The position numbers and the translations under genes are program-made. 51,920 nt of DNA. It comes from a virus. The DNA is taken from UHGV virus genome UHGV-0124386; one strand, 5' to 3'. Below the pieces are notes generated by a model that saw only the letters and a program-made list of their open reading frames with translations, searched no databases and was not told the DNA's origin. Shown here one piece after another: positions 12,890 through 50,507 of the stretch. Position 1 is the stretch's first letter; each line of letters starts with the position of its first letter.

Positions 12890-12988
12890 CAGCGTGATTG
12901 CGATCACATAAATATACATTTTGTATTGTGATTGCATATCCGTTTTGTAAGCCGAAATCAAAAGGTTTACGGTGCGGAGGAAAACAAG

Positions 12989-13207
12989 ATGGCCCGCGAA
13001 TTAATGCTTTATTGTGTTGAGGGTGGCGTAGGTAGTAATGCCTATGTCGCCGGGAAAGGCTATCCAGCCGATGAAGTGCTTTCTAATATGCACTTCCGGG
13101 AAAATGAAAGCCGGGTGTCTGTGTGGAAACGGTGCATTGATGGTATTGAGGTTGTAAGTATCGAACGGTATTTAGGCACGTTTGATTACGGTGTTATTGA
13201 GGCTTAA
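12989..13207 (+). CDS. hypothetical protein (72 aa)
   Basis: SD GGAGG upstream of ATG 12989; ORF track frame 12932..13207. Confidence 0.4.
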   Translation: MARELMLYCVEGGVGSNAYVAGKGYPADEVLSNMHFRENESRVSVWKRCIDGIEVVSIERYLGTFDYGVIEA

Positions 13208-13305
13208 TTATGGACGACACATTGTTTTATATGTGCTGTTGCTGGGGTTTTATTGCCTTATGTCTGTTTATCAGGTGGTTTATTGAATACCATATGAGGT
13301 GAGGC

Positions 13306-13500
13306 ATGGAACAGAAAACTGATTATAGAATACCTGATGGCCTAAAATTAGTTGGCATTGGTTTCGGGTGTAGATTTGTATCTGACGCAAAAGGAGCGAT
13401 TTATTTAATACGTCTTATTGATGGCGTTCAACATATAAGGAGATTAGGAATTTACATCAAAGCATTCAGAAGAGGTTATTTAAAAACTCATGAAATTTAA
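13306..13500 (+). CDS. hypothetical protein (64 aa)
   Basis: ORF track; SD GAGGTGAGG. Confidence 0.4.
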   Translation: MEQKTDYRIPDGLKLVGIGFGCRFVSDAKGAIYLIRLIDGVQHIRRLGIYIKAFRRGYLKTHEI

Positions 13501-13693
13501 ACATTACATGGAATGGAAAATTCCAGAAGCAGCAACAAAGGCAGCGCCAGGAAATGTTTCTGGCGTTTATTTTTATATGGATGGCAAATGGTATTTCGGC
13601 AGCAGGCCGGATCGCTACTATCAAGAAATATGCAAGCCTCACGTATGGGATATTAAAGAGCGCGTGAAAGGCGGGGTAATTGAGGACGTTTAA
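13490..13693 (+). CDS. hypothetical protein (67 aa)
   Basis: ORF track. Confidence 0.35.
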   Translation: MKFKHYMEWKIPEAATKAAPGNVSGVYFYMDGKWYFGSRPDRYYQEICKPHVWDIKERVKGGVIEDV

Positions 13694-13922
13694 AATGATG
13701 CGTGCAATTATTGACTTCATTATTGGATGGTTATTTTGTTCTTTTTTCGTATTCTCATGTATAGCTACGGTTTTTATTGGAATTTTATGTGGTGTGTCGT
13801 TTGTTACATGGGAGCTACCAGAAATTCCATCACCTGATGATGCGCTTTATATATTAAGGGTTATTATTGCTGTTAGTGTATTTGTTGGGTTCTTTTTCGC
13901 TGATTCTACTGATGATTTATAA
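13680..13922 (+). CDS. small membrane protein, two predicted TM helices (80 aa)
   Basis: ORF track; two long hydrophobic stretches. Confidence 0.4.
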   Translation: MRTFKMMRAIIDFIIGWLFCSFFVFSCIATVFIGILCGVSFVTWELPEIPSPDDALYILRVIIAVSVFVGFFFADSTDDL

Positions 13923-13923
13923 A

Positions 13924-48000: not shown

Positions 48001-50026
48001 GACAGCGGAATCACTGGAAACCATCACGGCAGAAATGAATGTGATGGACACAAACCTTAAAGGTCAGATCTCTAATGTGCAACGCGCAGTAGCTGACGAG
48101 GCCAGCGCTCGCGCTGAAGCTATTAACGGTGTAAATGCCTCAATAAGCAATCTTGACAAGAAAACTGACGCCAGCGTAAACCGTCTTGATCGGGCAATTG
48201 CAGACGAAACAAGTGCGCGTACTCAGGCTATCAGCGACGTGAACGCAAGTATCTCAACGCTTGACAAGAAAACTGACGCCAGTGTTAAGCGCCTCGATAA
48301 GGCAATATCAGATGAAACGCAGGCAAGAAGCGACGCAATAACAGTGGTTAAAGCTGATTTAACAACGCTTGAAAATAACACAAATGCCAGTGTTAGCCGT
48401 CTTGATCAAGCTATCGCTGACGAATCAAGCACACGCGCTCAGGCGATATCAGGTATCAGCGCGTCGCTTGGCAGCGTTAAAAGTGAGGTTGATAAAAACA
48501 GCGACGAGATAGTTCAGGCGAAAGCAGGTCTGCAAAACGCATCTCTGGCGCTTATTAATAACTCAATGGCGCAAAGCAAGATGAGCACTGTTATTGAGGC
48601 GAAATACAGGAAAGGACAAAGAAAAACAAAAGCGGAAATAGCAAGGGTAGACACAGCAATCGCAGATGAGGCGAGCGCACGCGCAGAAGCTATTAGCAAC
48701 GTTAACGCCAGCGTCAGTAGTCTTGAAAGCAAGACCGACGCGAGCGTTTCCCGTCTTGATAAAGCAATCGCAGATGAGGCGAGCGCACGCGCAGAAGCTA
48801 TTAGCGGGGTTAATGCGTCAATTTCCACGCTCGATAGCAAGGTGACAAGCAACGTAACCAGGATGGATAAAGCGATCGCAGATGAGAAGAATGCACGCAC
48901 TGACGCAATCAGCAGCCTTAACTCATCGCTTACCAGTACGATTAATTCGAAAGTATCCGAAGTGTCAACTGCACTTTCTACGCATGAAACATCAAGCGCG
49001 GAAAAATTTGGCCAGATCTCGGCATCTTTCGACGATGTAAACTCAAGCATCACGGAATGGTCACAGGCTATGGCAACGGCAGACGAGGCATTGTCAACCA
49101 GAATCGACCAGTTGAAAGTAACTATTAACGGAAACACAACGGCGATAGAAACGACATCAAAAGCACTGACTGACTTCAAAGGTAACGTTGATGCGTCATA
49201 TTCAATTAAGATTGCCACTGATAAAAACGGTATGAAATACGCTACAGGAATGTCGCTCGGCCTTACTGGTAGCGGGACTAACGTTCAATCGCAGTGTATT
49301 TTCCTCGTTGACCGTTTCGTGCTTATGACTGCGGCAGGTGGCTCCTATCAGACCCCGTTCTATGTTACTAACGGTGCTTGCTACATCCGTGATGCGTGGA
49401 TCAGAGACGCATCAATCACTACCGCGAAGATTGCGCAGCAAATTCAGTCAACCAACTATAAAGCTGGTTCGGCTGGCTGGATGCTAAATAAAAACGGCAA
49501 TGCGGAGTTCAACAACGTCACTGTACGCGGTACGGTGTACGCAACATCTGGTAAATTCACTGGTGAGATTCAGGCCACAAGCGGGAAGTTTAAAGGTACA
49601 GTAGAGGCAAAGTCATTTGTCGGTGACGTTGCTAACATGGGGGTTGGTCCAGATCGAGTGCTTGGGCATAACGGAAGTTATAGCGCAACCATCACATATA
49701 AAGACAGCACGGATAATGCATTGACGAAATCAGTTATGCTTATGGCGACTATTTCATTAATGTCTGGTGAATATAGATCCACTTATAACGTAACGTTTAG
49801 TTGCGGAGATAAAAACAAAACAATTTCATATTACGTGCCTTATGGTGGATGCACATTAACAGTGCAATGCGCTTTTTCTGGTTTAAAAGCATCAGATATT
49901 ATCGGGAAAATATATTGTCCTCAAACATCATCATCTGAAGGATACGCATATTGTACCGCGTTGTATTCTCCAACAATGATAGTAGCAAGAGGCACCGGAT
50001 CATTTAGAACATCAACGACAGCATAA
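45056..50026 (+). CDS. J: central tail fibre / host specificity protein J-like with expanded coiled-coil repeat region (1656 aa)
   Basis: Position after I; N-terminal J-like region; central tandem 36-aa repeats; about 500 aa longer than lambda J. Confidence 0.8.
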   Translation: MSSGGGKAKTPHLLNDNLYHKQFYRVLDILSEGPIYGPVNQKAPLNDVMLNDTPVTDANGNTSIPGVSIAWRNGTADQSPINGFNAIESTVIVNAKVTHDTPIIRTVSDPNVTRVRLNVGVDALVQSDDKGNQYNTSVMLMVDVKPSSSSTWSLVKDITIGPGKQSGEYLEAHVINAPDEKPFDIRVRRVTPDSKSDLLRNDTRWSSYSEIIDDNLSYPHTAVAGAVIDHDQYTDTPARTYHLRGLIVDVPDNYNPETRTYSGLWLGGFKKAYTNNPAWLFRYLVKNERFGLARHAGYIDVDDGALYTLSQYCDQLVSDGYGGFEPRMTLNAYITEQISARDLLDNIAGMFRGIALWDGQRLTVMIDAPQDPIATITNANVVDGAFTRSSIARAESYNAVIVSWTDPENGWEQSKEYVADDELIARDGYNETTLEAFGCTSRGQAYRAGKWLIETAKREPSKFTFKMARDAIHFTPGDIIEILDNNRAGARLGGRIVANNGKVITVDKVDAKYISAGDTISLLDSDGKFKKHQITGVSGNKITLASAPAWIRNGTVFAVSTNAAKPVLCRITSVAETENNSVYTIEAAQHDPHKQAVVDNGAIFEINNDTLNHFRVPNIENLKVLNVGSETVQCRATWETQTTTRRLTFEIRVYNADGAVVKSYETTNYSYDFYGIDSGTYSLGIRGRNDTGMKGAESIVDLVIGAPAAPIGVNWVPGVFQATVYPISRTTLTTDTSYEFYYSGETQITDPASVTTKAQYTGRGHQWTFGGMNTGHIYYVYVRTRNAFGVSDFVEASGKPTENFDEITDYVTKDVMNSKQFKEMVGDIKDLGDRTDLIESATNDLKTATDNLKTATDNLTNITDDLRTETDNLTIETGSIKADTDTLKKETEDLYKKVKENADDIGQHESRIDSLEVSSEKVGSELAQAKASLQNASLALINNSLAQTNTRVTLTAQYKKGRTETKAEIDRIDNVIAEEKKATAESLETITAEMNVMDTNLKGQISNVQRAVADEASARAEAINGVNASISNLDKKTDASVNRLDRAIADETSARTQAISDVNASISTLDKKTDASVKRLDKAISDETQARSDAITVVKADLTTLENNTNASVSRLDQAIADESSTRAQAISGISASLGSVKSEVDKNSDEIVQAKAGLQNASLALINNSMAQSKMSTVIEAKYRKGQRKTKAEIARVDTAIADEASARAEAISNVNASVSSLESKTDASVSRLDKAIADEASARAEAISGVNASISTLDSKVTSNVTRMDKAIADEKNARTDAISSLNSSLTSTINSKVSEVSTALSTHETSSAEKFGQISASFDDVNSSITEWSQAMATADEALSTRIDQLKVTINGNTTAIETTSKALTDFKGNVDASYSIKIATDKNGMKYATGMSLGLTGSGTNVQSQCIFLVDRFVLMTAAGGSYQTPFYVTNGACYIRDAWIRDASITTAKIAQQIQSTNYKAGSAGWMLNKNGNAEFNNVTVRGTVYATSGKFTGEIQATSGKFKGTVEAKSFVGDVANMGVGPDRVLGHNGSYSATITYKDSTDNALTKSVMLMATISLMSGEYRSTYNVTFSCGDKNKTISYYVPYGGCTLTVQCAFSGLKASDIIGKIYCPQTSSSEGYAYCTALYSPTMIVARGTGSFRTSTTA
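48088..48900. repeat. tandem 108-bp (36-aa) repeats inside J, plus a duplicated ~50-aa module at about 47806 and 48511
   Basis: 42-bp exact repeat GCAATCGCAGATGAGGCGAGCGCACGCGCAGAAGCTATTAGC at 48656 and 48764; at least 6 units of AIADEASARAEAIS.VNAS.S.L..KTDASV.RLDK; coordinates approximate. Confidence 0.75.
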
Positions 50027-50028
50027 AA

Positions 50029-50054
50029 AACGGGGCATAAGCCCCGTTTTTTTA
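50029..50054 (+). terminator. rho-independent terminator after J
   Basis: AACGGGGC-ATAA-GCCCCGTT followed by TTTTTTAT. Confidence 0.75.
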
Positions 50055-50064
50055 TGCATTGTTT

Positions 50065-50310
50065 TTATTTTTTACACCCATCATTTACACCAGAAAAATG
50101 GATAGGTAAATTACATTCACTGTCAATAATTTTACCTTGTAGTTGTTTTTCTTTCCATGAGTCAGTATTGAAATAACTCGAACGTTGGTTATCAAGGCCA
50201 GTATCACCATATTGAGCAGTGCCAGCATCACTCTTATCTGTCGAATTTACAGAAGCAAAAGCACCAAAAGACAGAGCTGATAAGATGCAAGCAACAATTA
50301 GTTTTTTCAT
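50065..50310 (-). CDS. small secreted protein (81 aa with signal peptide), antisense moron after J
   Basis: Signal peptide MKKLIVACILSALSFGAFA; SD AAGGTGA; ORF track extends to 50367. Confidence 0.45.
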   Translation of the reverse strand: MKKLIVACILSALSFGAFASVNSTDKSDAGTAQYGDTGLDNQRSSYFNTDSWKEKQLQGKIIDSECNLPIHFSGVNDGCKK

Positions 50311-50507
50311 TGTATTCACCTTACTGTTTGTTTTACTGTCATTTGTTGTTCGTGATGATCCACCCATCCGATGAGCAAATCACCGCAGAAGCTATCATTT
50401 CGTATGTTGATATAGATCAAAAAATACATTATGTATAAGCCCAAAGTGTAACACAGATCACAAAATGGTAGAATTGTTTAGTTAATTAACAAAACGGAGT
50501 TATTGCG

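Follow-up and report, generated by a model that had tools for sequence, protein, structure and literature searches.

Which protein reads the near-consensus TGTGA-N6-TCACA palindromes scattered through the viral genome UHGV-0124386, and which promoters do they serve? These palindromes resemble the binding site of the cyclic AMP (cAMP) receptor protein, CRP. A first-pass annotation of this DNA, a stretch of 51,920 nt that is treated here as a single window, had listed five of them and proposed that cAMP-CRP, or a CRP-family mimic encoded by the phage, couples accessory and tail genes to host physiology. Our analysis suggests, with a probability of roughly two in three, that the palindromes are binding sites for host cAMP-CRP built into compact phage promoter cassettes.

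All five palindromes were recovered exactly where they had been reported, and all five lie between open reading frames (ORFs). To score them, a symmetric matrix of 16 positions was built from the 107 CRP sites found under chromatin immunoprecipitation sequencing (ChIP-seq) peaks in enterotoxigenic Escherichia coli (ETEC) H10407 (Table 1, PMC4287617; Haycocks et al., 2015); leave-one-out scores of these 107 sites have quartiles of 10.3, 12.5, and 15.0 bits. Low matrix scores, which would have spoken against CRP, were not found: the sites reach 20.2 bits at 16287–16302 (TGTGATGCGGATCACA, above 99% of the ChIP-seq sites), 18.0 at 43097–43112 (CGTGACGCAGATCACA, above 94%), 17.0 at 12893–12908 (CGTGATTGCGATCACA, above 91%), 14.1 at 50447–50462 (TGTAACACAGATCACA, above 64%), and 13.2 at 41045–41060 (TGTGACAAAGATCTCA, above 56%), the last being the weakest and least conserved of the five. 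The 50447 site shares both arms with the ChIP-seq malE/malK site TGTAACAGAGATCACA and differs from it at two of six spacer bases. The ChIP-seq site GATGATCCGCATCACA, the reverse complement of TGTGATGCGGATCATC and a near match to the 16287 site, was considered as in vivo evidence and set aside as a coincidence; in ETEC H10407 it sits within a DUF968 gene that belongs to an unrelated lambdoid prophage.

Allowing at most one mismatch, the TGTGA-N6-TCACA pattern occurs six times in the window against 1.57 expected, a number reached by 2 of 100 shuffles; the sixth match, TGTGACTTGCATCAAA at 7996–8011 (14.6 bits, above 72% of the ChIP-seq sites), was absent from the first-pass annotation; it is found upstream of PL, the early leftward promoter, in the divergent stretch that separates PL from the repressor gene. 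Matrix matches of at least 13 bits number seven against 0.79 expected, and those of at least 16.9 bits number three against 0.03 expected; neither count was reached in any of 200 first-order Markov simulations. For comparison, 602 kb of distant phages that share only tail protein L contain, per 52 kb, 1.1 matches that reach 13 bits, and no match there reaches 16.9 bits. The five palindromes reported earlier are all among the seven best matrix positions of the window, and six of the seven matches of at least 13 bits fall in clearly non-coding DNA; by the ORF map, such gaps account for less than about 10% of the window. The five palindromes are thus real, intergenic, and far beyond chance expectation, and at the level of sequence they look in every respect like CRP sites. 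The seventh match (AGTGAGCAAGGTCACG, 9031–9046, 13.9 bits) is located in the leader between nutR1 and gp17; this 16-mer is conserved, scores 15.3–15.5 bits in some relatives including mEp021, lies partly within a short inverted repeat, and has no obvious promoter partner.

The window is 85–89% identical over 8 kb to the Escherichia phages MagusPhagus, mEp554, mEp013, mEp044, mEp010, mEp515, and mEp021, and belongs to the mEpimmI group, with mEp021 as its type phage. A tested 0.8-kb stretch of the window (15900–16700) matches a prophage of E. coli strain N25 at 99.8% identity and is present in 35 of 5,426 complete E. coli genomes. The mEpimmI phages are temperate and Nus-dependent; they have three nut sites and encode Gp17 as an N-like antiterminator, together with a Q-like protein and a repressor resembling lambda CI; the paper that describes them mentions no CRP sites, operator sequences, or any of the motifs discussed here (PMC11893012).

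Conservation was assessed in about 125 IMG/VR loci around tail protein L and the methyltransferase gene, with about 40 loci available per site. The GTGA and TCACA arms are fixed at 12893, 16287, and 43097, while spacer positions 6–10 drift freely; matrix scores in the relatives are 11.0–18.6 bits (median 16.4), 17.0–20.5 bits, and 15.4–18.0 bits, respectively. In all 21 distinct relatives, the 7996 site scores 13.7–14.6 bits. For the five sites added together, per-position variability correlates negatively with CRP information content (rho −0.55, p 0.027), such that the more informative positions are the less variable ones. When the relatives were scanned with the matrix, strong matches recurred at the homologous positions and were nearly absent elsewhere. 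Two of these positions are decayed in the window itself: at 21672–21687 the window has TGTGATCTACACAGCA (9.2 bits), where relatives have TGTGATCTGTATCACA (19.7 bits) or TGTGATCTACCTCGCA (16.2 bits), and at 37821–37836 it has AGATGCATAGATCACA (3.2 bits), where relatives reach 14.1 bits, for example with AGAGATCTAGATCACA. At both positions the window keeps only a good half-site, AAATGTGATCTA at 21669–21680 and its reverse complement at 37826–37837. The full set thus consists of eight sites at conserved positions, the five first noted together with 7996, 21672, and 37821. The type phage mEp021 carries seven of the eight (record positions 11126, 16519, 20096, 37691, 42075, 44001, and 52968), with no strong match at the position homologous to 21672.

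Six of the sites share a single layout when each is oriented to face the adjoining phage motif: the CRP-like 16-mer is followed by about 23 A/T-rich nucleotides, a −35-like hexamer (TTGnTn), 8 nt, the core CCATTTTG or its variants CCGTTTTG and ACAATATG, and a −10-like hexamer (TAnAnT). This alignment holds column by column for all six. Three of the predicted promoters point rightward, on the plus strand. The first (12926–12953) combines TTGTGA, a spacer ending in CCGTTTTG (12940–12947), and TAAGCC, with the next ORF at 12989; the second combines TTGTTT (from 16320), CCATTTTG (16334–16341), and TATACT (16342–16347); and the third (21705–21733) combines TTGTTT, CCATTTTG (21719–21726), and TATATA, with the next ORF at 21767. 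Three others point leftward, on the minus strand. In the predicted PL (7950–7977), the −35 TTGATC (7977 to 7972) is separated by a 16-nt spacer ending in CCATTTTG (7963 to 7956) from the −10 TAAACT (7955 to 7950); a predicted moron promoter at 37775–37802 consists of TTATTT, CCGTTTTG, and TATAGA, and faces a small ORF starting at 37704 and a 139-aa ORF (37139–37558); and a second predicted moron promoter at 43048–43076 consists of TTGATC, 17 nt ending in ACAATATG, and TATATT, with 9 of 12 matches in a consensus scan. The distance from site centre to core start is 39.5 nt in 29 of 29 relatives at 12893, 33 of 34 at 16287, and 5 of 5 at 21672, and 40.5 nt in 23 of 23 relatives at 37821; in the window it is 40.5 nt at PL and 43.5 nt at the 43-kb leftward promoter.

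The nutL boxA (7872 to 7858, minus strand), which also shows up in an inverted repeat, follows PL in agreement with the published map, and the boxA GCTCTTTAAAAATCC at 16363–16377 agrees with the published location of nutR2 downstream of the methyltransferase gene (PMC11893012). The two boxA elements are identical over at least 15 nt, and that of nutR2 begins 15 nt past the 16320–16347 promoter block, or about 9 nt past its predicted start. All predicted promoters have a nut site or an ORF 25–70 nt downstream; for PL, nutL comes first, and the first ORF follows about 135 nt from the predicted start. By eye, a clear Shine-Dalgarno sequence precedes most of the ORFs downstream of these promoters.

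Two further sites face predicted leftward promoters outside this layout. The 50447 site has the same kind of core and −10 block, ACATAATG and then TATTTT (50421–50434), a predicted promoter core that faces a 100-aa ORF (50065–50367) at the same position as a gene annotated as "lipoprotein" in MagusPhagus and mEp021. The 41045 site faces a predicted promoter at 40989–41028 built like the early rightward promoter PR, with TACAAAATGG, a C, the −35 TTCACG, 17 nt, and the −10 TATATA, which in turn faces the ORF 40793–40948.

E. coli CRP activates class I promoters from positions such as −61.5 and −71.5 and class II promoters from −41.5, with lac P1 (−61.5) and galP1 (−41.5) as familiar cases. If transcription starts about 7 nt past the −10 hexamers, with the first −10 base counted as −12, the six aligned sites would lie near −60: at −59.5 for the 12.9-kb and 16.3-kb promoters, at −60.5 for the 21.7-kb and 37.8-kb promoters and for PL (where 48.5 nt separate the 7996 centre from the first −10 base), and at −63.5 for the 43.0-kb promoter. 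The 41045 centre is 58.5 nt from its leftward −10, or about −70.5, and the 50447 centre is 28.5 nt from its −10, or about −40.5, the class II position. In this last case the core starts only 20.5 nt from the site centre, and this displacement of 20 bp is the same step that separates class I from class II. The approximately 1-bp uniform shift from the canonical positions fits the uncertainty of the predicted starts. CRP sites in the ETEC ChIP-seq data likewise lie most often about 40.5 bp upstream of transcription starts (PMC4287617).

Regarding the identity of the binder, three Pfam scans covering about 60 phage ORFs found no cyclic nucleotide-binding (cNMP-binding) domain and no Crp-type helix-turn-helix (HTH) domain, so that the proposed phage mimic of CRP finds no candidate gene and host CRP becomes the likely binder. 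The recognizable regulator or nucleic-acid-binding families in these ORFs are the CI-like repressor, Q, NinG, RusA, HNH, ANT, ERF, SSB, and a ParE-like protein. Three of the sites score above more than 90% of the sites bound in vivo, and occupancy of these by host CRP in E. coli would be expected. The CRP-like scores, fixed arms, and activator-type distances agree with the proposed coupling to host physiology, and its targets need revision: they appear to be PL, three internal promoters that face right (12.9, 16.3, and 21.7 kb), and the accessory-gene or moron promoters that face left (37.8, 41.0, 43.0, and 50.4 kb). Tail genes M and L and the tail fiber gene have predicted rightward promoters of their own, at which the sites are placed such that a block is likelier than activation. 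The predicted −10 of tail gene M, TATAAT at 41036–41041, is invariant in relatives and would have its CRP-like site at about +5; the extended −10 of tail gene L, TGGTATGAT at 43084–43092, would likewise have the site centered at about +5; and the extended −10 of the tail-fiber ORF starting at 50508, TGGTAGAAT at 50466–50474, also invariant in relatives, would have it at about −27.

These placements would fit the supposition that CRP binds and mainly represses, shutting off the M, L, and tail-fiber promoters in a lysogen with high cAMP, with the activator geometry being incidental. The 41045, 43097, and 50447 sites do overlap or adjoin conserved −10 elements in this way, and cAMP-CRP is known to repress three promoters in phage T1. 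Yet such a role leaves unexplained the fixed offset of 39.5 or 40.5 nt to downstream cores at the five other sites, as well as the 20-bp step at the 50.4-kb leftward promoter, and we consider repression as the main function improbable; activation and repression are not mutually exclusive. It is still less probable that the sites are operators of a phage regulator, either the prophage repressor or an unrecognized protein with GTGA-N6-TCAC half-sites, whose likeness to CRP sites is coincidental. The sites do occur only in this phage group and always amid copies of the CCATTTTGTA motif, all of them contain a GATC that CRP binding would not need, and the phage has many small early ORFs without known function. 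However, no site overlaps PR (8808–8836), the nearest being some 200 bp downstream at 9031 in the nutR1–gp17 leader, and the absence of a CRP-like site over PR indicates that the sites are not immunity operators. Moreover, the copy at PL lies about 60 bp upstream of the promoter core instead of overlapping it, position-wise conservation tracks the CRP matrix, the CI-like repressor is the only recognizable HTH regulator among the ORFs scanned, and the three sites that outscore 90% of real CRP sites should be bound by host CRP regardless.

Two other explanations dispense with a DNA-binding protein as the reason for the sites, and both appear very unlikely. Were the palindromes to act as RNA, in intrinsic terminator hairpins or leader structures, the 16287 site would be the natural example: it is the center of a hairpin with a 12-bp stem (16281–16308; −18.3 kcal/mol, z −4.5) followed by the T-run CGCTTTTTGT, it comes directly after the methyltransferase stop codon, and mEp021 has a predicted terminator, TERM_4, annotated at the homologous position. 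The other four sites, in contrast, have weak or shuffle-like folds (z −0.34, −0.08, −2.25, and −0.07) with no T-run, an Rfam search gave no match, and most relatives of the 16287 site have an uncompensated C·A mismatch in the stem that CRP tolerates, with a fold that is still −14.4 kcal/mol. A terminator reading for the whole class was rejected for this reason, as hairpin and T-run coincide at 16287 only, where a double role as CRP-like site and terminator is likely. The sites could also be passengers of a cassette copied by recombination, conserved by recent divergence and without a present role. The pairwise resemblance of some cassettes and the low divergence of the relatives (3–15% over much of the region) fit such a history, but in these same alignments the spacers and inter-element sequence have changed freely while the arms have not, and the PL cassette has only the functional blocks in common with the others.

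Several observations weigh against host CRP as an activator at all of these promoters. The assigned −35 and −10 hexamers match only weakly, and of these promoters the leftward one at 43 kb was the only one picked up by the consensus scan. Two of the predicted centers, at −59.5, and a third, at −63.5, are 2 bp off the canonical phase, and three sites overlap predicted rightward start regions. Because cassettes are alike in pairs (12.9 and 16.3 kb; 21.7 and 37.8 kb), the regular spacing may partly reflect duplication and not independent selection. The arm-versus-spacer pattern of conservation is weaker at 41045, which scores 6.7–14.9 bits in relatives and has a variable right arm, and at 50447, where the left arm is often TGCAA and poorly conserved while GATCACAAAATGGTAGAAT is invariant. 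Matrix scoring covered the 16-mer only; bases flanking the CRP 16-mer carry little information. Most copies of the CCATTTTGTA motif, those of relatives included, have no CRP-like partner. Finally, a GATC in every site exceeds what CRP binding needs, and another reader of the sites may exist.

The GATC is present in each of the five palindromes first reported, always at positions 10–13 of the 16-mer (p about 0.007), as the earlier description of Dam sites within or at the edge of the palindromes had it. It is found in all seven modules that have a GATCACA arm, as compared with 37% of ChIP-seq CRP sites in at least one arm (p about 0.001), and is kept in 74–91% of relatives at the three strong sites (12893, 16287, and 43097). 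The pairwise likeness of some cassettes means that the independent cases are fewer than seven. A link between Dam methylation and these sites is plausible on this pattern; our literature search found no report on Dam and CRP binding. The pap operon with Lrp and agn43 with OxyR are known examples of methylation-sensitive regulatory sites containing GATC, and the present sites are like them in keeping a GATC inside a regulator site, in a phage with a Dam-type methylase of its own (14167–14706). Unlike in pap and agn43, the GATC here is already part of the ideal CRP site (TGTGATCTAGATCACA). A second phage-encoded methylase lies at 15500–16264. TTGATC recurs on the minus strand of three leftward promoter regions (7972–7977, 43071–43076, and 50415–50420), serving as the −35 in PL and in the 43-kb promoter, and each of these places a Dam GATC in a promoter element of a phage that encodes a Dam-type methylase. 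The window also has a perfect FNR-type palindrome, TTGATATAGATCAA (TTGAT-N4-ATCAA; 50407–50420), which is located 41 bp from the CRP-like site 50447 in the same intergenic region and whose half-sites are largely kept in relatives.

The first-pass annotation had also described four of the palindromes as running directly into the ACAAAATG motif. This is exact only at 43097 and 50447; the 16287 site is followed by ACATAATG, 12893 by ACATAAAT, and 41045 by TCATTTTT. The ACAAAATG motif is a phage element in its own right, much more frequent than the palindromes; it forms the part of the promoter adjoining the −10, and its apparent fusion to the palindromes at 16287, 43097, and 50447 reflects an extra, overlapping core copy (ACATAATGG, ACAAAATGA, and ACAAAATGG). 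With at most one mismatch, this element (TACAAAATGG, or the CCATTTTGTA motif) occurs in 26 copies in the window against 5.6 expected, and its palindromic form TACA-N3-TGTA in 7 against 0.5 expected. Eighteen copies lie in intergenic gaps throughout the genome, including both early promoter regions and nearly every gap; examples are at 1041, 3969, 5107, 6165, 7954, 8797, 9476, 12916, 12940, 16269, 16334, 21693, 21719, 37779, 37805, 41019, 41090, 43016, 43052, 43078, 50425, and 50459. Two positions recur: CCATTTTG at the −10 end of the spacer, of which it forms the final 8 nt, and TACAAAATGG 1–2 nt upstream of a −35, as at PR (center −41.5). The motif was not found in the distant relatives searched, and a search of relatives that started from CCATTTTGTA yielded 21 new sequence contexts, none with a CRP-like site at the expected offset.

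The CCATTTTGTA element could be a dispersed repressor operator or a promoter element. Copies are in some places paired: inverted pairs with starts 26 bp apart are found at 21693–21728 and 37779–37814 (TACGAAATGG-N16-CCATTTTGTT and TACAAAACGG-N16-ACATTTTGTA), both flanking a −35-like hexamer and each preceded by the 12-mer AAATGTGATCTA, and direct pairs 24–25 bp apart are found at 12916/12940 and at about 16309/16334. A spacing of 24–26 bp is near that of cooperatively bound lambda operators. As for a host regulator, the motifs of sigma-32, sigma-54, IHF, Fis, PhoP, OmpR, EvgA, TyrR, and AraC, compared informally, were poor fits and were discarded. A tentative and rather doubtful extension would make about eight promoters, including PL, into three-input cassettes that join a CRP site, an obligatory GATC reporting Dam methylation or replication state, and the CCATTTTGTA element as a scattered operator of the CI-like repressor, for which the dispersed C1 operators of P1 and the "stoperators" of mycobacteriophage L5 offer a comparison. 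If true, a lambda-like phage would join immunity, carbon status, and methylation in one module for early, accessory, and tail promoters.

The early control region shows further symmetries. An inverted repeat of 27 nt (70% complementary, 7 nt between the arms) at 7946–8006 gives near symmetry to the interval from PL to the repressor gene; its right arm contains a weakened copy of the PL core, ACGTTTTGTGACTTGC, which overlaps the CRP-like site 7996 and may be a weak promoter for the repressor gene. PR (TTGACT, 17 nt, TATATT; 8808–8836) is flanked by an 8-bp inverted repeat (TTGACTCG at 8808–8815 and CGAGTCAA at 8838–8845), a candidate operator unrelated to the CRP-like or CCATTTTGTA motif. The predicted first transcribed bases of PL and PR are alike (ACAAGGTAAGG and TCAAAGGAAGG). 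All relatives retrieved have the same immunity region; the two more distant loci share the methylase gene only. The interval between the repressor gene and gp17 (8685–9184) is, from coordinate offsets, about 213 bp longer than that of mEp554, and the ORF 8965–9210 within it matches no family and is perhaps not a gene. Elsewhere, leftward accessory-gene clusters on the minus strand at 40228–40948 and 41764–43039 break up the tail operon, each with a terminator-like hairpin at its end. When 40 ORFs, those of both clusters included, were pooled for a Pfam scan, it returned ParE-like toxin, HNH endonuclease, and KilAC antirepressor domains, as matches not tied to individual ORFs.

Taken as host CRP sites, the palindromes would work as follows. 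CRP bound at the class I and class II positions would contact RNA polymerase and activate. At low glucose, cAMP-CRP would raise transcription of the early leftward replication operon from PL, of a second, nut-bearing promoter that precedes ninG and Q, of the block that includes the phage Dam methylase, and of several leftward accessory genes, and would dampen the rightward promoters inside the tail region, those of M, L, and the tail fiber. Methylation by the host or phage Dam enzyme may modulate CRP binding through the kept GATC.

Such an arrangement has partial precedents. The likeness to E. coli class I and class II promoters extends to a 16-bp TGTGA-N6-TCACA site in the in vivo score range, weak −35 elements, and, for the predicted centers near −60, −70, and −40, the 20-bp step between classes; the differences are the phage genome, the phage-specific CCATTTTG block upstream of the −10, the GATC in every site, and centers that are predicted. 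In lambda, cya and crp hosts are known to lysogenize poorly, and to our knowledge no consensus CRP site at the lambda early promoters explains this effect of cAMP and CRP. The window resembles lambda as a temperate coliphage with N/Q-type antitermination and a CI-like repressor, in a comparison where lambda's life-cycle choice depends on host cAMP; here, however, a CRP-like site stands directly upstream of PL and of a second nut-bearing promoter. Phage T1 has three promoters, pir, dam, and recE, that cAMP-CRP represses directly, as established with reporter fusions, a cyaA deletion, and a cell-free transcription–translation assay (Laganenka et al., 2019, PMC6737242). T1 is likewise a coliphage with several promoters under host cAMP-CRP, one of them a dam promoter, and with development tied to sugar supply; the two phages are unrelated, and repression in T1 contrasts with the mostly activating geometry predicted here.

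CRP-like sites are known in kind, yet undescribed for the mEpimmI group, and the less ordinary part is the repeated cassette together with the dispersed CCATTTTGTA element. The phage probably reads host carbon status through these sites. If so, mEpimmI phages would wire that status into PL, into a nut-bearing promoter leading to Q and the late genes, and into several genes that are likely expressed from the prophage. Transcripts from the 16.3-kb promoter would carry their own nut site, with nutR2 only about 9 nt past the predicted start, and this would be one reason for the existence of a third nut site. The sites would offer a concrete, mutable DNA handle on how nutrient state bears on lysis, lysogeny, and lysogenic conversion, and the isolated phage mEp021, which carries the same sites, makes the question testable in strain W3110.

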